This document shows, piece by piece, positions 562 to 9,750 of a stretch of 9,750 bases of DNA. Below the pieces are notes generated by a model. That model did no database searches and was not told where the DNA came from. It saw only the letters and a list, made by a program, of their open reading frames with translations. Positions within the stretch are counted from its first letter, which is position 1; every line of letters begins with the position of its first letter. The DNA is from a virus (lineage: Duplodnaviria; Heunggongvirae; Uroviricota; Caudoviricetes), in IMG/VR virus record IMGVR_UViG_2579778631_000016. One strand, 5' to 3'. The position numbers were made by a program, and so were the translations under genes.

Positions 562-996
562 TTACTGTTCTGTATCGGCTGATTGCTCCATGCTGGCACG
601 GCGAACGCTTACGGCATGACGCCACCCAGCCAGAAAGCCAGCCATTTTATTTCGTGCCTTGCTCACATCTTCCGGTGAATAGCCGTAAATCTGCAAACCT
701 TCATCAAATCGATGTTCTGTTTCTTCACTGGAGTACTCGTCACGCTCAGATGAAAGCAGCCTGGCAAACATAATTTTTTCCAGCGCACTGGTTTCTACGT
801 GATATCTGATGGCCTCAAGACGGCTTTTACCTGAAGACCAAAGCAATGTATGCCCGATGTGATAACCGCCAGACTTTCCGCGATCCGCATTAAGATACGG
901 CATCCCCTGTTTGGTCCATGCGCGAATAGTGGTTCTGTTAACCTTGAAATGTTCAGCTATTTCCTGCTGACTTACAAAACAAGCTTTATCAATCAT
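562..996 (-). CDS. Nu1-like terminase small subunit / packaging-specificity protein, 144 aa
   Basis: N-terminus VSQQEIAEHFKVNRTTIRAWTKQGMPYL aligns with the lambda Nu1 winged-HTH region KKQLADIFGASIRTIQNWQEQGMPVL. ATG at 994-996 has an AAGGTAA Shine-Dalgarno and lies 89 nt downstream of cosN copy B on the same strand. No terminase large subunit gene follows. Confidence 0.75.
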   Translation of the reverse strand: MIDKACFVSQQEIAEHFKVNRTTIRAWTKQGMPYLNADRGKSGGYHIGHTLLWSSGKSRLEAIRYHVETSALEKIMFARLLSSERDEYSSEETEHRFDEGLQIYGYSPEDVSKARNKMAGFLAGWRHAVSVRRASMEQSADTEQ

Positions 997-1158: not shown

Positions 1159-1572
1159 TCAGATGGTTTTCAGTATGCGCTCGATGTCGCCATCATCGCC
1201 CGGGTTTCTGCCGTCGTATGCCATGCCAGCTGAAACGGCTTGCGGGCTGTGCATGTCCATAAAGTTTTCAAAGGCTGCGGTAAGCTCCGGCGCAACCTTC
1301 TGGCGTTCCTGCTCTATGGTCATGCTAAGGATGCTTTTAGCCGTACCAACATCGATACAAGGCACGTTTGCCATTGCACGTAACAGCGGCTGATAGTCGT
1401 TATGCTCATGAAGCGCCATAATCGCATCAGCGCGCGGCTTGTCCTGCTCTTCCAGTTTGTTGAGTTGATATACGGCCTCGTAGGTTGATAAACCTCTGTC
1501 AGCCATTGCCCGCGCTTCGGCTTTAAATTTACTCGCCAGCGGTAGCGTCATGATGCTTTCATTCGTTGCCAT
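1159..1572 (-). CDS. hypothetical head-module protein, 137 aa
   Basis: ATG at 1570-1572 with an AGGGGGAA Shine-Dalgarno, 12 nt after the stop of the gpD-like gene and followed by a terminator. Function unknown; its position suggests an accessory head, scaffold or size-determination protein. Confidence 0.6.
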   Translation of the reverse strand: MATNESIMTLPLASKFKAEARAMADRGLSTYEAVYQLNKLEEQDKPRADAIMALHEHNDYQPLLRAMANVPCIDVGTAKSILSMTIEQERQKVAPELTAAFENFMDMHSPQAVSAGMAYDGRNPGDDGDIERILKTI

Positions 1573-1584
1573 CGTTCCCCCTGC

Positions 1585-1920
1585 TTATCGGGCCAGCGGC
1601 TGAACGGATACGCCAGAACCCGCAAAGGCGGCGCATTTTTTCGCATCGGTGTCGACGCTCTCGGGCCAGTTCACGGCGGCGATATTAAAGATCCCCGTCT
1701 TGTAGCACTGTGCTGATTTCTGCTTTGACGTGTCCACGGGGTACGAAGTCAGATAAACAGCCTTTCCGGACGCCTGACCATCCCACGGCTTAAACTCGCC
1801 ATTGTCCGCCAGCATCAGCGGGGTAAATTCCTGAATGACGCCAGCATCAGCGGCAAAATGTACCAGCGTCGTGGATACCTGCTGACTGCCTGCAAATAAC
1901 TCAATGTATGGAGTGTTCAT
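1585..1920 (-). CDS. head decoration protein, lambda gpD-like, 111 aa
   Basis: TPLMLADNGEFKPWDG and YKTGIFNIAAVNWPES...KKCAAFAGSGVSV match lambda gpD (TPLMLDTSSRKLVAWDG; YKSGTFRYEDVLWPEA...KKRTAFAGTAISIV). GGGGGA Shine-Dalgarno; directly follows the capsid gene. Confidence 0.8.
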   Translation of the reverse strand: MNTPYIELFAGSQQVSTTLVHFAADAGVIQEFTPLMLADNGEFKPWDGQASGKAVYLTSYPVDTSKQKSAQCYKTGIFNIAAVNWPESVDTDAKKCAAFAGSGVSVQPLAR

Positions 1921-1931
1921 AGAATCCCCCG

Positions 1932-2987
1932 TTAACCAATTTTGACGGTAACAAATTTGCGAATGTCTGCCGGCACCGGCTGCGGTGCGCTGTGCGTCTG
2001 CACGTACTCAATCGCCGGATCGCCGTCCTCAATCCAGTTTTTCGGGTAGTACATGTTTTGCGTTGCGCCCGTTCTTACCGCTTCCTGATCCATAATCGCA
2101 CCATAAGCAACCAGCCCTTTATTGTTGGTGTTGCCCAAGACCAGCAAATCAGGCTCAAGGAAATGTTTTTCGGTGCCGTCGCTGTCGGCGTATTTGCCGG
2201 AATAGACGATAAGGGCAATATCGCCCAGATAGCCTTTAAAGCTCACCACTTCGCCCAGGTTTTTACAGGCCAGTTCTGCGGCGGATTCTGAACCACGGGA
2301 AAGATCGTACAGTTCGCGGAATTTTTTAAAGCTGCGTAACGTGCGCCATACCTCAGCGCCCATAATCATGACGTTTGCGGGGCAATTGCCCTGATCCGCA
2401 TAAAGCTCGATATCATAGATTGGATCGTGGGTTTCTTTGTCCTGCTCGGACCATTTACGGCCTTTGGCCTGCTCTATGATGTTGTTTTCCGGCATCTTCC
2501 AGTCGATTTCATAGCGTTCTATGCCTTCGCCCTCAATGATGTTTTTTCCGGTCGTTACCGCATTTACCGCCAGCCATTCAACACGCGCTTTAATAGCGTT
2601 TACCTGGCGGCGCATGTTGCCAGTAATCAGGCGCATACGGCGATAGGTTGGGTCGTTAAGCTGTGCCGGATCTTCTCCAGCCATGCGCATGATGGTTTTT
2701 GTTGGATCGATTTCGTGCTTTGGCTTCATGTAGCCAGGTTTAATCGTGCTGGTTTCGTACCCTTTATCGCGCTGTACCTGGCTACCAACCATAGGCGAGC
2801 AAAACGCTGACATAGTGACTTCTTCGGTGTCCAGGTTATCCAGCATGATGTTTTGGGTGTTGAATGTCGCTACTTTCTGGAAAAACAGCGTGGTAAACAG
2901 CGGACTAAATTTAAATTCCGCAATATCCCCGCGATTCAGGTACGCAAAAAGCTGGTGAGTGTTAAGTGCCGTTGCTTTGCCTGCCAT
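1932..2987 (-). CDS. major capsid protein, lambda gpE family, 351 aa
   Basis: Several blocks match lambda gpE: EFKFSPLFTTLFF / KFKFDPLFLRLFF; PGYMKPKHEIDP / PGYVKPKHEVNP; EDPAQLNDPTYRRMRLITGNMR / EDPQNLADPAYRRRRIIMQNMR; GDIALIVYSGKY / GDVAIVVYSGQY; YPKNWIEDGDPA / YPKNWVTTGDPA. Start overlaps the upstream stop (TAATG). Confidence 0.9.
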   Translation of the reverse strand: MAGKATALNTHQLFAYLNRGDIAEFKFSPLFTTLFFQKVATFNTQNIMLDNLDTEEVTMSAFCSPMVGSQVQRDKGYETSTIKPGYMKPKHEIDPTKTIMRMAGEDPAQLNDPTYRRMRLITGNMRRQVNAIKARVEWLAVNAVTTGKNIIEGEGIERYEIDWKMPENNIIEQAKGRKWSEQDKETHDPIYDIELYADQGNCPANVMIMGAEVWRTLRSFKKFRELYDLSRGSESAAELACKNLGEVVSFKGYLGDIALIVYSGKYADSDGTEKHFLEPDLLVLGNTNNKGLVAYGAIMDQEAVRTGATQNMYYPKNWIEDGDPAIEYVQTHSAPQPVPADIRKFVTVKIG

Positions 2988-3193
2988 TATTCACCCCCAT
3001 AATTTTTATGCATCCCAAGCGCCGCAAGTAAATAAGAGCGTACAAGTGAACCTATCGACGGCTCCGGCGTCATCAGCGGATCCAGTCCAGCCGCCACGCC
3101 AGCCTCATAGTTTTTTTTGTGGCGCTGCTTGAGCACCTCCACGATTTCGGGGCTTATGTACACCGAAACACCGCCTTTTTTCTCTTCAGCCAT
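2987..3193 (-). CDS. hypothetical protein, 68 aa, first gene of capsid operon
   Basis: ATG at 3191-3193 with a GAGGAA Shine-Dalgarno; its stop overlaps the capsid ATG, indicating translational coupling. No family recognised. Confidence 0.55.
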   Translation of the reverse strand: MAEEKKGGVSVYISPEIVEVLKQRHKKNYEAGVAAGLDPLMTPEPSIGSLVRSYLLAALGMHKNYGGE

Positions 3194-3249
3194 AGTAAGA
3201 AATTCCTCTTCGACTTAAAAAATCATAACTGGATGTTCATCCAGCTCTG

Positions 3250-3277
3250 ATTATAATCATGATTGCATTTTGTGCAA
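3250..3277 (-). promoter_or_regulatory. sigma70-like promoter for the capsid operon (TTGCAC, 16 bp spacer, TATAAT)
   Basis: On the minus strand: -35 TTGCAC (3272-3277), 16-nt spacer, -10 TATAAT (3250-3255), about 55 nt upstream of the ATG at 3193. The -10 lies inside the perfect palindrome GATTATAATC and is flanked by TTGCA/TGCAA dyads. Confidence 0.45.
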
Positions 3278-3357
3278 TGATATTGAGTTGTGTTGCAAAT
3301 TGTGAAATGATTATCCCGATCATGTGTGTCAGTGCACCAAAAAGCCTCATATGCAAA

Positions 3358-3395
3358 AGCCCGATAAGCCACCTCTGACCTTATCGGGCTTTTTT
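3358..3395 (+). terminator. rho-independent terminator on the + strand
   Basis: agcccgataag-(11 nt loop)-cttatcgggct followed by TTTTT (3391-3395). No annotated + strand gene ends here, so it would terminate a short + strand transcript starting near the capsid promoter. Confidence 0.45.
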
Positions 3396-3519
3396 ATCTG
3401 CCTGCAAAGATGTCGAACAAAAATTAACCATAACCATCATCTTTTTTGCATCAAAACAATTAAAAACAATAAATTACGCTCATGATGATGATGACGATAA
3501 AATCACAAAAATGCGCTTT

Positions 3520-3570
3520 TTTCCGCGCCTCCCGCCCCGTGTTCAGGCCCACCCCGCCAGGAGGACCCGT
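3520..3570 (-). other. degenerate cos-like relic, copy C
   Basis: The minus strand reads acgggtcctcctggcggggtgggcctgaacacggggcgggaggcgcgg: a cosQ-like ACGGGTCCT followed by a decayed version of ttacgGGGCGGCGACCTcgcgg. Confidence 0.4.
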
Positions 3571-3592
3571 AAAAAAGCCGGATTGCTCCGGC
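3571..3592 (-). terminator. rho-independent terminator after the SSB gene
   Basis: Hairpin gccgga-ttgc-tccggc with an adjacent 6-nt U tract on the minus strand (A tract 3571-3576 on +). It is nearly identical to the terminator at 1130-1152. Confidence 0.55.
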
Positions 3593-3608
3593 TTCTGTCA
3601 CTCGTCGC

Positions 3609-4031
3609 TTAAAACGGTATGTTATCCCCGTACGGATCATCATTCCCCGCCTGTTGTTTTGCCCTGTTCAGCGCGTCAGTAGCCTGCCCCTGTTGACCTT
3701 TTTTGCTGCCCGGTCGCGCCGTTCTGGCACTGATTACACTGTCTGCGATAACCTGCCAGCCCTGCCGCGTTTCGCCGTTCTGGCCTGTCCACTGGCTCAC
3801 CTGCATATTACCCGCCACGCTCAGGAGTTCGCCTTTGTGGTGTTTTGCCAGTGCGTCGGCCTGTCTGCCAAACGCCAGGACAGATAACCACATCGTCGCC
3901 GTTCCGTCATCTGCCTGGCTGCATGGCAGGGGAACCGCCATACTCGCCATCGCCATTTGTGTCCCTTTGCTGGTGGTCTTTAACTGCGGGTCAGCCACCA
4001 GCCGCCCGCAAGCCGCTATCTGTGCTGTCAT
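3609..4031 (-). CDS. ssb: single-stranded DNA-binding protein (SSB), 140 aa
   Basis: OB-fold-like core (WLSVLAFGRQADALAKHHKGELLSVAGNMQVSQWTGQNGETRQGWQVIA) and an acidic C-terminal tail ending ...DDPYGDNIPF, as in E. coli SSB (...DFDDDIPF). Start overlaps the upstream stop (ATGA). Confidence 0.8.
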   Translation of the reverse strand: MTAQIAACGRLVADPQLKTTSKGTQMAMASMAVPLPCSQADDGTATMWLSVLAFGRQADALAKHHKGELLSVAGNMQVSQWTGQNGETRQGWQVIADSVISARTARPGSKKGQQGQATDALNRAKQQAGNDDPYGDNIPF

Positions 4032-4332: not shown

Positions 4333-4560
4333 TTGTCTACCTTATCTACCTTACTGGCTCTCATGCCAGTAATGGCGCGGCTTTCAGCGGGGTAGAGTGC
4401 TTTTATCCACTATCTACCCCGTATCTACCTCCCTGTCTGATTCAGGTAAAATCAGGTAGAGAGGGTAGATAGTAGGTAGACAGTGAAAAAAGGCTGTCTA
4501 CCTAAGTTAATATACTGAATTGAATGTATTTTTCTTTACTCAGGTAGACAGGGTAGACAG
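4333..4560. repeat. iteron array (about 11 copies of GGTAGA(CAG) / (CTG)TCTACC) with an AT-rich spacer; putative replication origin
   Basis: GGTAGA at 4391, 4455, 4464, 4475, 4543, 4552 and TCTACC at 4336, 4345, 4413, 4424, 4497; the full 9-mer GGTAGACAG occurs three times. An AT-rich stretch at 4500-4540 could be an unwinding element. Lies immediately downstream of the primase/helicase gene, as in SaPI/PICI origins and P4 ori/crr. Confidence 0.7.
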
Positions 4561-4573
4561 CCATTGCAAAAAA

Positions 4574-6322
4574 TTATAAAAACGCGTCGCAATCGTCTGT
4601 TGTTATTGCGTTAGTCTGCGTTACTCCCTTAACTTTCCGCGTAATATATTCATGTCCGTAAACTTTCGCGGCTGGCTTCATAGCCTTGCCAAAGTCATTT
4701 ACGTTTAGCGGTTTGCTCCTGCCTGCGTATGCCATAAACGCCAGATAGACGCGGTAAAGGCTGTTCCTGGTCGTGTACTTCACTGAATCGCCACCGCCCC
4801 CCATCATCAGGCCGCGCGCTTCCTCCAGAAAATTCAGGAACTGGCAAAACTCAATAACCGGATCCGTTTGCTGCTTTATCGCCAGTGCTTCATCACCGTC
4901 ACGCTGTTCAATGAGTAAAGCCCGTGCCTTTTCAGGGGCGGAAAAGTTCGCCAGTAATCGGCGGATAATCACAGGGATTTCAGCCGCAATCTTTTCCGGT
5001 AGCTCCCTGTCTTTGTCGGCCTCACTGACGATATTGTCGAAACGGAAAATCACGCGACGACGTGCCACACCTCCGGCCCGTTCGGTGAATATCATCGGGT
5101 TGTTGTTGGTCGCCAGCACCACCGCCCTGATTACCGCCGTGAAACGCTTTTCATATTTCGGGTTAACTTCCACGGGGTCGCCGCCTGTGATTTTCTTGAT
5201 GCCCGTTCCTTCGCCTGTATATTTCGGCTGGTCAGCCAGGACGATAAGACGACTCCCGACAACCTGCGCACGTCCACCAGCATCATCAAGCGATGTCATT
5301 TCAGCGCTTACCGTGTTCTGTTTCCCTGCCAGAAGGCTGGCTATGTGTGTGAATGTACTTTTACCGCTCCCGCCGTCTCCGGTGGCCTCAATAAACATCT
5401 GCCAGTCGTACCGGTTCGCCATAATCATGTACAGCGCGGCACATATACGCATCATCTTGCTCGGGTCTTTTCCGGCTGCGTGCTCAAGCCATTTATGAAA
5501 GTTTGGCGCGTTATCGCGGATGTTCTCCCCGGGTGCTGGTGGCGTGTACTCAATGCCGTTGTGCGTGGTGATCCAGTTCTCCGGCGTGTGCGGGGAAAAT
5601 TCCCCCGTTTTCAGGTCAAGCGCACCATTGGCGAACGGCAGCAAATCGCCGGACGGCTCGCCCATTGGTTCGGCAATAACTTTTAACGCTTCCACGGCGT
5701 TATTGATTACGCGCTTGCTGAAAGTGGCCCTGTGCTCTGAATAGATCGCCACCATTTCGCGGCTCAGCTCCATTGTGCTGACCGGACACCATACCCCGCC
5801 GCGCCATACGTGAACGATTTCACTTTCAGGATGCACACAAACGCCATCAAAGCGCTCGGCAAGCAGCTGCGCGCGCTCACTGTCTGCCATTTGTGCCAGT
5901 TGCGTATTTTTCTGCTCCGGCATGGTAAGCCCTGCGGCAATATTTTCACGCTCAGCATTCAGATAGCGCCGCCAGTTTTCACACTTCTGGGCGTGCATTC
6001 CTTCGGGGTAAAAATTTGCGTCCTGAATATCTGCCGCCGCCAGCTTCTGACCAATCTTTTTGGTCTCCACCAAATCCAGTTCTCCGGCCTGGTACAGCCT
6101 TACGCGTTTTTTTCCATCAGGAACAATTTGCAGTGCATCAAGTTCGGCAAGCTGATTTGGCCCAAGCCACACAGGAGGCACATTATCGCCGGATGCGGGG
6201 CCGTCCTGCTCCTGCCACTGTTTTGCATGTGCCCACGCATCACTACCCGCGAAAATAATCACCTCTGTGTCTTTGTGTTTTATTCCGCGTGGCTGTTTTT
6301 TTACGTTCGGTGCCAGTTTCAT
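4574..6322 (-). CDS. P4-family primase / SF3 helicase replication initiator, 582 aa
   Basis: Walker A motif GDGGSGKST, a downstream LIVLADQP Walker B-like segment and a C-terminal region typical of phage/plasmid primase P4-family (D5_N-like) proteins. Start overlaps the stop of the upstream small ORF (ATGA). Confidence 0.9.
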   Translation of the reverse strand: MKLAPNVKKQPRGIKHKDTEVIIFAGSDAWAHAKQWQEQDGPASGDNVPPVWLGPNQLAELDALQIVPDGKKRVRLYQAGELDLVETKKIGQKLAAADIQDANFYPEGMHAQKCENWRRYLNAERENIAAGLTMPEQKNTQLAQMADSERAQLLAERFDGVCVHPESEIVHVWRGGVWCPVSTMELSREMVAIYSEHRATFSKRVINNAVEALKVIAEPMGEPSGDLLPFANGALDLKTGEFSPHTPENWITTHNGIEYTPPAPGENIRDNAPNFHKWLEHAAGKDPSKMMRICAALYMIMANRYDWQMFIEATGDGGSGKSTFTHIASLLAGKQNTVSAEMTSLDDAGGRAQVVGSRLIVLADQPKYTGEGTGIKKITGGDPVEVNPKYEKRFTAVIRAVVLATNNNPMIFTERAGGVARRRVIFRFDNIVSEADKDRELPEKIAAEIPVIIRRLLANFSAPEKARALLIEQRDGDEALAIKQQTDPVIEFCQFLNFLEEARGLMMGGGGDSVKYTTRNSLYRVYLAFMAYAGRSKPLNVNDFGKAMKPAAKVYGHEYITRKVKGVTQTNAITTDDCDAFL

Positions 6323-7805: not shown

Positions 7806-8012
7806 TTAAGCAGCCGTTCCGCGTGCTTCCTGTTCGCGTTCTTTCTGCCAGGCCAACACATCATCCTCATACCATCCGCGACGGCGTAAACCAACGCGAA
7901 AACCCTGCGGAAATTCTCCGGCGTTGATCATGCTTTGCAGCGTGCTGTCTGCCTTGATGTGGATAATTTTTTTTACTTCCTGGCGAAAGATAATTTTTCT
8001 GATTGCTTCCAT
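7806..8012 (-). CDS. alpA: AlpA-family phage transcriptional regulator / excisionase-like protein, 68 aa
   Basis: KADSTLQSMINAGEFPQGFRVGLRRRGWYEDDVLAWQ matches the AlpA-family HTH pattern (...TIYRLIxxGxFPKPxKLGxRxxxWxExEVxxW). AAGGTAA Shine-Dalgarno; sits beside a P4-type integrase as in CP4-57. Confidence 0.8.
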   Translation of the reverse strand: MEAIRKIIFRQEVKKIIHIKADSTLQSMINAGEFPQGFRVGLRRRGWYEDDVLAWQKEREQEARGTAA

Positions 8013-8088
8013 CGTGATTTACCTTGTGAATCCGGTGTATTCCGGTGACAAATACGGTAAATCATCGGATATGGGTAAAAACAGTTCC

Positions 8089-8119
8089 CACCGTTTTTAA
8101 ACGGTATACACCGTTTTTT
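8089..8119. promoter_or_regulatory. dyad ACCGTTT-tt-AAACGGT plus a second ACCGTTTTTT copy upstream of alpA
   Basis: caccgttttt at 8089-8098 and 8109-8118, with the palindrome ACCGTTTTTAAACGGT at 8090-8105, in the alpA 5' region. Candidate regulator binding site. Confidence 0.3.
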
Positions 8120-8145
8120 ATATTGATGATTTGAAATGGAATTAT

Positions 8146-8179: not shown

Positions 8180-8431
8180 TTACCGCCATTTTTTGGGCCT
8201 GCCTCCGATCTTCATAGATGCCGGACGTACGACCTTATCAATACTTACCGCCAGATTTCTGGAAGCGCCACGGGATACCAGAAAATCTACTACCTGTTTT
8301 TTTGATGGGGCCGTCGTTCTGTCCTCCGGATCGTAGGTTGACCAAAATTCATGCTGAACCATCAGGGCCAGTTGCAGCCCGTCGCAATTGCATCTGATAT
8401 TTTTTTGCATCTTAACGGTTTCATGTTTCAC
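8180..8431 (-). CDS. hypothetical protein, about 76-83 aa, between int and alpA
   Basis: ORF with a GTG at 8429-8431 or an ATG at 8408-8410; both have weak ribosome-binding sites. Followed by a terminator. No family recognised. Confidence 0.4.
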   Translation of the reverse strand: MKHETVKMQKNIRCNCDGLQLALMVQHEFWSTYDPEDRTTAPSKKQVVDFLVSRGASRNLAVSIDKVVRPASMKIGGRPKKWR

Positions 8432-8508
8432 GGCCTTGTCGTTAAATTTGATGCAATTATACGACGGTTTTACATGGTTTTCGTAGTTTTTACTGGTTTT
8501 CTGTACAG

Positions 8509-9750
8509 CTACACGGCTCGGATACCCCTTTTACCACTGGCGAGGGTTACGCCCGTCGCCGCAGCCTCGACAAATTCGCCCCACCAGCGCATCAGCACGA
8601 TGCGTTTTTCTATGTAGTTGCTCCGGTTGTATGCCCGTCTAACTTCGTTGGTGTCGACGTGGGCAAGTGCCGCCTCTATTACGTCCGGCTCGAATCCTTC
8701 CTCGTTCGCTGCTGTGCTGAATATGGCGCGTAATCCATGAGACACCAGCACGCCAGCGAATCCCATACGCCGCAATGCTGCGTTAGCTGTCTGGCTGTTC
8801 ATCGGCTGCTGTGGGTCTTTCAGACTTGGGAAAACGTAATTGCGGTGGTGGCTGATTGGTTTCATGGCCTCCAGCACCGCCATAGCCTGACCGGAAAGCG
8901 GGATAACGTGATCCCTGCGCATCTTCATGCGTCCGGCAGGTATCGTCCATTGCTTCGCGTCCAGGTTGATTTCATCCCACCGCGTTGATGACGCTTCGGC
9001 GGGACGGGTTACGGTCAGTAACTGCCATTCAATCAGTAATCTGGTCTGCCGTTCTGTTGCCGATACTGATAAAGCCTGCATAAGCTCCGGCAGCTGTTCG
9101 GGGCGGATTGTTGGCATATGTTTTTTTACAGGTGAGGGAAACGCCTTACGCACATTCATAGCCGGATTGGCATCAATCAGCCCACTGTTGGCGGCGTAAT
9201 CCATTACCTCATTAACGCGCTGTAAAACCCGCTTGAGTGTTTCCAGGTTGCCGCGCTCCTTGATGGGGGTAAGCACTTCAACGAACCTTCGGGCGGTGAG
9301 GGTATCTATTGGCGTGTTGCCGATGAACGGGAATACATATTTATCCAGCGAACGCCAGATGTCTTTAATCGTGTTGGGGGCCAGATTCTGGCTGATTTTC
9401 ACCTGGTACCATGCCGCCGCCACATTTTCGAACGTGTTCCCTTGTCTTCGGGCCTCTGTCTCTCTTTTTTGCCTCTCGTGGTCCTGCGGGTCAGTTCCGG
9501 CACTGATTAACGTCCTGTACTCGCTACGGCGTTTTCTGGCATCAGCCAGGGAAACATCTTCAAGCGATCCAAAACTCAGCAATATTCTTTTTTTGTCCGA
9601 TGGTCGGTAGTAGGAAAATCTCCAGAGTTTTGATCCAGACGGTTTGACCAGGAGAAAAAGCCCTCCGCCGTCCTGCAGGGTGTACTCCTTTTGCGCTGGT
9701 CTGGCTGCTTTGATCTGCACTGTGGTTAATGGGTGTGTTTTTCTCGCCAT
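8509..9750 (-). CDS. int: tyrosine integrase, P4 / CP4-57 IntA type, 413 aa
   Basis: N-terminus MARKTHPLTTVQIKAARP...GGGLFLLVKPSGSKLWRFSYYRP is typical of P4-like integrases. The C-terminal catalytic region has HGLRAIFST and AYNRSNYIEKR, the tyrosine motif. ATG sits at the window edge (9748-9750). Confidence 0.95.
   Translation of the reverse strand: MARKTHPLTTVQIKAARPAQKEYTLQDGGGLFLLVKPSGSKLWRFSYYRPSDKKRILLSFGSLEDVSLADARKRRSEYRTLISAGTDPQDHERQKRETEARRQGNTFENVAAAWYQVKISQNLAPNTIKDIWRSLDKYVFPFIGNTPIDTLTARRFVEVLTPIKERGNLETLKRVLQRVNEVMDYAANSGLIDANPAMNVRKAFPSPVKKHMPTIRPEQLPELMQALSVSATERQTRLLIEWQLLTVTRPAEASSTRWDEINLDAKQWTIPAGRMKMRRDHVIPLSGQAMAVLEAMKPISHHRNYVFPSLKDPQQPMNSQTANAALRRMGFAGVLVSHGLRAIFSTAANEEGFEPDVIEAALAHVDTNEVRRAYNRSNYIEKRIVLMRWWGEFVEAAATGVTLASGKRGIRAV

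Follow-up and report, generated by a model that had tools for sequence, protein, structure and literature searches.

A predicted LexA-type operator at the promoter that drives the capsid, decoration and Rpp genes of an EcCICFT073-type phage satellite

The DNA studied here, referred to throughout as the window, is the 9,750-nucleotide IMG/VR virus record IMGVR_UViG_2579778631_000016, which is a phage-inducible chromosomal island (PICI) of the Gram-negative EcCICFT073 type, a phage satellite of Escherichia coli. In this island the genes for a capsid protein, a decoration protein and Rpp belong to a packaging and interference operon, and our main conclusion, drawn from the sequence, is that the sigma-70 promoter of this operon is likely to be gated by the host repressor LexA, through a palindromic SOS box at positions 3227-3246. 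Such a box resolves the puzzle of a good promoter placed in front of genes that are expected to be silent. In the literature searched on Gram-negative PICIs, LexA and SOS boxes appear only in citations of the work on the pathogenicity islands of Staphylococcus aureus (SaPIs) and the regulation of the packaging module is undescribed; a literature search for chromatin immunoprecipitation, electrophoretic mobility shift or SOS transcriptome data covering the locus found none, and LexA control of a Gram-negative PICI packaging operon is apparently unreported.

The promoter of the capsid operon

The elements of the promoter region, whose positions, geometry, scores and conservation were established directly on the DNA, are the following.

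3277-3272, minus strand: -35 hexamer TTGCAC, with 3/6 matches to TTGACA and a conserved TTG, followed by a 16-bp spacer
3255-3250, minus strand: -10 hexamer TATAAT, read directly, inside the palindrome GATTATAATC
3249-3258, both strands: perfect palindrome GATTATAATC, which also puts a + strand TATAAT at 3252-3257
3227-3246, both strands: LexA-type SOS box, AACTGGATGTTCATCCAGCT on the + strand and AGCTGGATGAACATCCAGTT on the operon strand, with a perfect 16-bp palindrome within
3203-3222, minus strand: mRNA leader, with a conserved T6 (3217-3222) and the Shine-Dalgarno sequence AGAGGAA (3203-3209), the ATG being at 3193-3191
3277-3306, minus strand: second promoter-like match, TTCACA-18-TATCAT (10/12), listed by the consensus scan

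An earlier note on this DNA, made from the letters alone, had described the minus-strand promoter (TTGCAC, 16-bp spacer, TATAAT) and the perfect palindrome around its -10 hexamer, and both are present in the sequence. Its description of the promoter as near-consensus and unusually strong does not hold: the -35 hexamer matches at only three of six positions and the spacer is 16 bp long, which is why the consensus scan missed this promoter, and one or more TTGNNN-N16-18-TATAAT turn up in 25% of random 9.75-kb windows of matched composition, so that the match was rejected as a statistical anomaly. The promoter is good but not near-consensus, and owes its credibility to position and conservation, not to statistics. 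Across 50 distinct homologous sequences, including those of Salmonella, 5/6 positions of the -10 hexamer are invariant, and the -35 hexamers of the homologs read TTGCAT, TTGCGC, TTGCTC or TTGCGA with the 16-bp spacing unchanged. In the footprint alignment, two TTGCA repeats (R1, and R2 with the -35 hexamer), TGATTATAATCA, the box and the T-run of the leader stand out as separate conserved blocks with diverged spacers between them. Transcription of the operon is predicted to start near 3243. The upstream match TTCACA-18-TATCAT was discarded as a promoter, as it is unconserved (most homologs have TTCATA as -35, and the -10 varies between CATCAT, TATTAT and TTTTAT), and it is probably non-functional.

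The promoter region is found in 601 of 5,426 complete E. coli genomes, among them O157:H7, CFT073 and ATCC 25922, and is unannotated there. An Rfam scan of the whole window (E up to 1) found no family within 3194-3400, and nothing matched the region when 50,697 phage records were searched by BLAST in distant mode.

The LexA-type box

The most informative palindrome of the region, CTGGATGTTCATCCAG, was not singled out in the earlier note. It is a perfect 16-bp palindrome (3229-3244) of the form CTG-N10-CAG (CTG at 3229-3231, CAG at 3242-3244), which begins 4 bp downstream of the -10 hexamer and spans the predicted transcription start. In general, SOS boxes overlap the start site, near the ATG (PMC8072944), and the LexA consensus is a 16-bp CTG-N10-CAG dyad core in a 20-bp site like TACTG(TA)5CAGTA (PMC6590174); the 20-mer at 3227-3246 has this consensus form of a Gammaproteobacteria LexA operator.

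For the scoring of LexA sites, a matrix was derived from 17 SOS promoter regions of E. coli K-12 MG1655, which were fetched and in whose DNA 19 established boxes were confirmed, and sites were ranked by the Berg-von Hippel heterology index (HI), with the proven boxes scored leave-one-out. The window 20-mer has an HI of 7.56 (7.62 with a symmetrised matrix), and the proven K-12 boxes range from 0.3 to 12.6 (ssb and uvrA 7.1, uvrD 7.3, cho 8.2, ruvAB 9.0). No site scoring as well was found in 2 Mb of composition-matched random sequence (Markov-1), and the next best site of the window, a second box at 8491-8510 aside, has an HI of 13 or worse. The E. coli SOS boxes of ruvAB (CGCTGGATATCTATCCAGCA) and cho (CACTGGATAGATAACCAGCA) share with the window box the CTG-N10-CAG dyad core and the CTGG...CCAG arms (CTGGAT...ATCCAG in ruvAB), and resemble it also in the AT-rich centre, in the comparable HI and in the location of the site next to the promoter core. 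Unlike them, the window box belongs to a mobile satellite and precedes capsid and packaging genes, not repair genes, and here the binding of LexA is a prediction.

The box is conserved in sequence and in position. A protein-anchored scan yielded 80 related IMG/VR loci, which fall into two clades according to the identity of the first operon gene (about 100% in one, about 69% in the other), and in 79 of the loci the box has an HI of 5.3-9.2 at a fixed distance of -53/-54 from the ATG. In the Salmonella islands, where the first gene is only 53-55% identical and spacers and flanks differ, the box GACTGGATGAAAATCCAGTA (HI 6.84) stands in the same place, and no other site in any of these 6.2-kb loci has an HI below 15. 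In the prototype EcCICFT073 the box AACTGGATGAACATCCAGTT (HI 6.36) is the best site in 52 kb of CFT073 DNA, a lambdoid prophage included. The sole exception among the 80 loci is L039 (IMGVR_UViG_2529293138_000005, ~1280-1500), in which a 1-nt insertion breaks the box (CTGGATGAACAATCCAG, HI 21); this copy also has a deletion in the terminator T2 (see below) and is possibly decaying.

A perfect palindrome at the start of a transcript could also act in the RNA, as a 5' stem-loop with a U-run serving as a leader terminator or attenuator, from which an antiterminator (e.g., a Q-like protein of the helper) would free the operon, or as a hairpin stabilising the mRNA. The terminator scan does list AGCTGGATGAACATCCAGTT followed by ATGATTTTTT as terminator-like, the T-run of the leader is conserved, and the hairpin would have about -8 kcal/mol if the full palindrome were transcribed. 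From the likeliest start (3243), however, part of the 5' arm is missing, the fold of the leader is no better than that of shuffled sequences (z 0.24) and the U-run stands 4-5 nt off the stem. The natural variants also point away from an RNA element: in five loci from at least two backgrounds ATCCAG has become ATACAG, by which the HI improves to 5.5 and the hairpin weakens from -8.3 to -2.8 kcal/mol with no compensating change, and the central 4 nt of the box vary or flip among related loci. Since ATACAG improves the LexA match and at the same time breaks the hairpin, and since the centre varies, the palindrome is better read as a protein operator than as an RNA structure. The insertion in L039 does keep the hairpin, yet this is a single and otherwise degenerate copy, and the RNA-level explanation appears very improbable.

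The palindrome might instead serve as operator for a different dimeric repressor, a product of the satellite or of a helper phage, and only look like an SOS box. Perfect 16-bp palindromes are typical operators of many repressors, and half-sites that both have G in fourth place (CTGG/CCAG) are a minority form among LexA sites; nevertheless, exactly these arms occur in the proven LexA sites of ruvAB and cho, and the variants drift towards the LexA consensus (ACAG). Moreover, the same island has a further conserved and independent box, whose arms are CTGT/CCAG or CTGT/ACAG, and the box at the promoter persists in islands that differ in their int, alpA and replication modules, so that no co-varying island-encoded repressor is evident. 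We therefore give little credence to a LexA lookalike. The repressor operator suggested in the earlier note thus finds support in the LexA-type box at 3227-3246, but not in the -10 palindrome or the TTGCA dyads.

The second LexA-type box lies close to the integrase and alpA-like genes.

8491-8510, minus strand: second LexA-type box, AGCTGTACAGAAAACCAGTA, HI 6.96/9.1, overlapping the int stop codon

It is found 29 nt upstream of a TATAAT (8461-8456) ahead of an 83-aa open reading frame (ORF) and the alpA-like gene, and is kept in 30/30 related loci; in the most diverged of these, the site AACTGTACAAAAAAACAGTA is nearer the consensus (HI 6.12) at the same spacing within different flanks. At about -42 to -61 this box is in no classical occlusion position, and alpA is, according to published work, not SOS-induced. 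In EcCICFT073, the gap between int and alpA holds a weaker LexA-like site, TACTGTTTTTTTATACACTG (HI 8.55).

The TTGCA repeats R1 and R2

A 19-nt unit occurs in two copies at and upstream of the -35 hexamer.

3263-3281, both strands: R2, TTGCATTTTGTGCAATGAT, overlapping the -35 hexamer and the spacer; direct repeat family D1
3293-3311, both strands: R1, TTGCAAATTGTGAAATGAT, 30 bp from R2 and centred at about -57

These copies contain the TTGCA/TGCAA dyads which the earlier note saw around the promoter, perfect at 3263-3277 (in R2, as ATTGCA-N5-TGCAAT over 3262-3278) and with one mismatch at 3293-3307 (in R1). The note proposed to look for the dyads in related islands, and they are indeed conserved there: R1, with 14/17 positions invariant, Salmonella included, is the most conserved piece of the region, and R2, with 10/17, is a conserved block of the footprint alignment and a candidate site for a second regulator. 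Elsewhere in the window, e.g., near alpA, dyads like those of R1 and R2 occur at chance level only.

Several known sites were compared with R1 and R2 and set aside. A CytR operator requires TGCAA-N2-3-TTGCA or GTTGCATT octamers between two CRP sites; only the TTGCA core is shared, the half-sites are arranged in the opposite way and conserved CRP sites are absent, since TGTGA in the window is TATGA in most homologs. The CII-type box of phage lambda has the form TTGC-N6-TTGC. No exact copy of it is present in the window, and matches with one mismatch occur at chance. Like the lambda CII boxes and the tandem Xis/AlpA-type sites, R1 and R2 are TTGC(A) repeats around and upstream of the -35 hexamer; they differ in the lineage of the window by a same-strand spacing of N5, by the dyad symmetry of the units and by a promoter whose -10 hexamer is perfect. 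An identity with cosB was rejected, because exact cosN 12-mers are located at 347-358 and 1086-1097. Sigma-54 (-24/-12), Fur, IHF, MarA and CRP patterns, assessed by eye only, either do not fit R1 and R2 or are unconserved.

In three satellites found in GTDB genomes of Kluyvera, Cedecea and Superficieibacter (L134 2338-2365, L135 2372-2399 and L136 2381-2408, respectively), TTGC-N6-TTGC-N6-TTGC arrays, i.e., three direct TTGC(A)/TTGT repeats with an exact spacing of 10 bp, lie about 50-100 nt upstream of the capsid ATG. They resemble an activator array and may be related to R1 and R2, and their place upstream of distant capsid genes suggests that a TTGC-binding regulator may be an older and more general control of such operons.

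It is conceivable that the main switch is a factor acting at R1 and R2, either as a repressor over the -35 hexamer or as an activator at -57, supplied by the helper, by the satellite or by the nucleoid (e.g., H-NS), with LexA in an auxiliary role; such a switch is compatible with LexA control. The exceptional conservation of R1, the overlap of R2 with the -35 hexamer and the three TTGC repeats upstream of the capsid gene in distant satellites devoid of a LexA box all speak for it, as does the induction of the CFT073 operon by a temperature upshift without an SOS signal. On the other hand, matching motifs in the rest of the window are no more frequent than chance, none of the known factors fits (CytR would lack its flanking CRP sites and have opposite half-sites, and the spacing is unlike TTGC-N6-TTGC), and a promoter with a perfect -10 hexamer has no obvious need of an activator. 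We regard this as a possible but rather unlikely arrangement.

Terminators and transcription of the + strand

Two terminators separate the promoter region from the SSB gene (encoding the single-stranded DNA-binding protein), and one short ORF runs on the + strand.

3355-3395, + strand: intrinsic terminator T2, with arms GCCCGATAAG (3359-3368) and CTTATCGGGC (3380-3389) and T6 (3390-3395)
3571-3593, minus strand: terminator T1, acting in the sense direction, AGCCGGAGCAATCCGGC with T6 behind it, after the SSB gene, closing the replication module
3259-3378, + strand: 39-codon ORF, not a gene

T2 has a 10-bp stem, an 11-nt loop and T6 on the + strand, with a tail of only T4 on the operon strand. 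The + strand terminator reported in the earlier note is therefore borne out, and its stem is invariant in 80/82 loci across at least 10 versions of the loop. In these copies A5-7 flank one end of the hairpin and T4 the opposite end, which makes the terminator strongest in the + direction. Judged by stem, loop and U-run, T2 qualifies as a genuine and conserved Rho-independent terminator, whose probable role is to shield the replication module from transcription that leaves the promoter region backwards. T2 doubles as the mosaic boundary of the promoter module, many E. coli matches stopping exactly at 3395. In EcCICFT073 the T1 hairpin directly adjoins T2, and in the Salmonella islands a different hairpin stands in place of T2. 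In the window, T1 and T2 are parted by a block of about 170 nt (3400-3560) with no convincing ORF; it behaves like a mosaic unit of its own, with 3406-3581 as the only part matched in some E. coli genomes.

With T1, T2 and their own promoter, the packaging and interference genes of the window form a transcription unit of their own downstream of the replication origin (ori). In the RNA-seq data of CFT073 after a shift from 23 to 37 °C, c1498-c1500 change by 1.5-2.2 log2 and the adjacent SSB gene c1497 by 0.24. Own terminators and regulation apart from c1497 both indicate that the operon is a separate transcription unit.

The earlier note proposed a different role for the + strand, namely a convergent RNA of about 100-130 nt ending at the terminator (3359-3395), perhaps coding for a cysteine-rich peptide and serving as an antisense control point of the late genes. 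Some observations agree with it. The + strand terminator is genuine and conserved, and it works best in the + direction; T2 of EcCICFT073 is back-to-back with the sense terminator, as if a + strand RNA needed stopping; the palindromic -10 supplies a perfect + strand TATAAT; and a 142-nt + strand RNA folds better than its shuffles (z -3.1), mostly owing to the terminator. However, no + strand promoter reaches the scan threshold, and the best candidates, TGGATG-16-TATAAT (9/12) and TTGAGT-17-AATGAT (8/12), are weak. Furthermore, a + strand RNA starting at about 3264 and the operon mRNA starting at about 3243 would run apart in opposite directions, so that the two are divergent and non-overlapping rather than convergent, and the + strand RNA would miss the operon transcript; antisense overlap with the operon mRNA would arise only through read-through or from P1 transcripts. 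The 26 nt beside the terminator exist in unrelated versions, and no known RNA family matches.

As for the peptide, a + strand ORF of 39 codons containing it does exist and, as the earlier note observed, it lacks a ribosome-binding site, with no Shine-Dalgarno sequence upstream. It is not conserved in the related islands, where the note had advised looking for it: the ATG is absent in 35/84, the length varies from 4 to 65 codons and the C-terminal half is unrelated between variants. The ORF is an accident of conserved DNA repeats and not a gene. A short divergent + strand transcript ending at T2 is possible, and antisense control of the late genes strikes us as most improbable.

Genetic context of the island

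Every real gene of the window is on the minus strand, in the following order.

8509-9750, minus strand: integrase
8180-8431, minus strand: 83-aa ORF
7806-8012, minus strand: AlpA-like gene
after the AlpA-like gene and ahead of the primase, minus strand: DUF4222 gene
4574-6322, minus strand: D5-type primase
3609-4031, minus strand: SSB, next to the intergenic region under study
2987-3193, minus strand: first gene of the operon, 68 aa, phrog_3255, homolog of EcCICFT073 c1498
1932-2987, minus strand: lambda gpE-like capsid gene (Pfam/PHROG)
1585-1920, minus strand: gpD-like decoration gene (Pfam/PHROG)
1159-1572, minus strand: 137-aa ORF
562-996, minus strand: Rpp-like winged helix-turn-helix gene, 144 aa (Pfam/PHROG)

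This layout is that of the prototype EcCICFT073. Gram-negative PICIs with the same gene organisation have been described, where the capsid and decoration homologs are c1499 and c1500, respectively, and Rpp is c1503 (Fillol-Salom et al.). The exact lambda cohesive-end 12-mer GGGCGGCGACCT occurs twice in the window, inverted, on either side of the Rpp-like gene (347-358 on the + strand, 1086-1097 on the minus strand), and the two copies match the published cos1 and cos2 which flank the Rpp gene of EcCICFT073. Both strands of 4398-4495 match weakly the microRNA-precursor model RF04068 (28.7 and 25.6 bits, far under the gathering score), and a match by both strands points to a palindrome, or a long hairpin, in the gap that lies downstream of the primase gene; replication origins of PICIs have been reported from this place. 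The alpA-like gene is preceded by two copies of the direct repeat AAAAACGGTG with the spacer TATACCGTTT (8085-8125, minus strand), which are distinct from the TTGCA repeats and could be a site of AlpA autoregulation.

EcCICFT073 (L102 1-208 and 463-669) carries an extra gene for a PerC-family regulator between SSB and the terminators, which the window does not have. The 68-aa product of the first operon gene has no Pfam match; its relative P0023 (58% identical over 78% of the length) is annotated as PerC family.

Discussion

In the mechanism proposed here, a LexA dimer bound at 3227-3246 would block initiation or promoter escape in undamaged cells. Upon DNA damage RecA would be activated and LexA would cleave itself, in response to the same signal that induces lambdoid helper prophages, and the operon would be derepressed, so that the packaging and interference proteins of the satellite would be made as the heads and terminase of the helper appear. 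Excision and replication would stay under the separate, helper-specific AlpA circuit. The two back-to-back terminators would insulate the operon, T1 by stopping read-through from the replication module and T2, strongest in the + direction, by stopping transcription that leaves the promoter region backwards. R1 and R2 would probably bind a second regulator.

A number of points weigh against this proposal. Both the binding of LexA and the start site of the operon are predictions from the DNA. Conservation discriminates only in the comparison with Salmonella, because the whole 135-nt region is strongly conserved within E. coli (mean majority fraction 0.85-1.0). The satellites of Kluyvera, Cedecea and Superficieibacter have the same capsid module without a LexA box (best HI 13.5-17.4), which makes the LexA design lineage-specific; they are the only three loci that a scan of GTDB genomes with a capsid alignment returned, and this survey of other genera is thin. 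The HI of the box is intermediate, and leaky repression is therefore predicted. In the temperature shift of CFT073, the one expression dataset found, c1498-c1501 rise about 3-4.7-fold with sulA unchanged (supplement of PMC12890032), and induction by temperature without induction of sulA means that at least one further input exists; a possibility is that H-NS-type silencing of the AT-rich promoter region underlies this response. Finally, published work, which does not address the promoter studied here, has found that alpA expression is SOS-independent and induced by the helper, and such islands are thus not simply SOS-driven.

For the PICIs of the EcCICFT073/EcCIEDL933 type in E. coli and Salmonella, these elements can be combined into a two-key design, in which helper-specific AlpA would control excision and replication and LexA the capsid, decoration and Rpp operon, with the second conserved box at the junction of int and alpA. 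We lean, by no great degree, towards this design.

Host LexA is known to control genes of other mobile elements. In the SaPIs, operon I, the packaging and interference module, is LexA-controlled (Ubeda et al. 2007, as cited in PMC5052747), and its gene content is described in PMC5052747. The likeness lies in a module placed after the ori, with packaging and helper-interference genes and an own promoter that here, too, would be under the host SOS repressor, and in an island whose induction itself depends on a helper-specific signal. By contrast, the genes are non-homologous (terS, cpmAB and pti in the SaPIs, lambda gpE-like and gpD-like genes and Rpp here), the LexA motif is here the Gram-negative one, and the master regulator of the island is the activator AlpA and not the repressor Stl. 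The operon of the window would be an analogue of SaPI operon I, not a family member, which arose by convergence and was not inherited. The promoter P1 of phage GIL01 is likewise under host LexA (PMC4551915) and is a case of a mobile element that senses host damage through SOS boxes at a promoter of its own; in GIL01 LexA runs the lysis-lysogeny switch together with the phage co-factor gp7, whereas here it would gate only the late module of a satellite.

Besides blocking phages, PICIs disseminate genes for virulence and resistance, and for the Gram-negative ones only the induction step by AlpA has been described so far. A LexA operator would explain the timing of the packaging and interference module, and would tie the SOS response induced by antibiotics to satellite packaging and phage interference. 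If LexA control is confirmed, Gram-negative PICIs would have arrived by independent convergence at the LexA control that SaPI operon I is known to have, in a field whose literature stresses the different regulation of Gram-negative and Gram-positive PICIs. For PICI-based engineered "drones" and diagnostics, it would identify a promoter that is silent without DNA damage. In about 11% of E. coli strains, SOS-inducing antibiotics would then prime the cells to block helper phages and to package islands, even before any signal from the helper.

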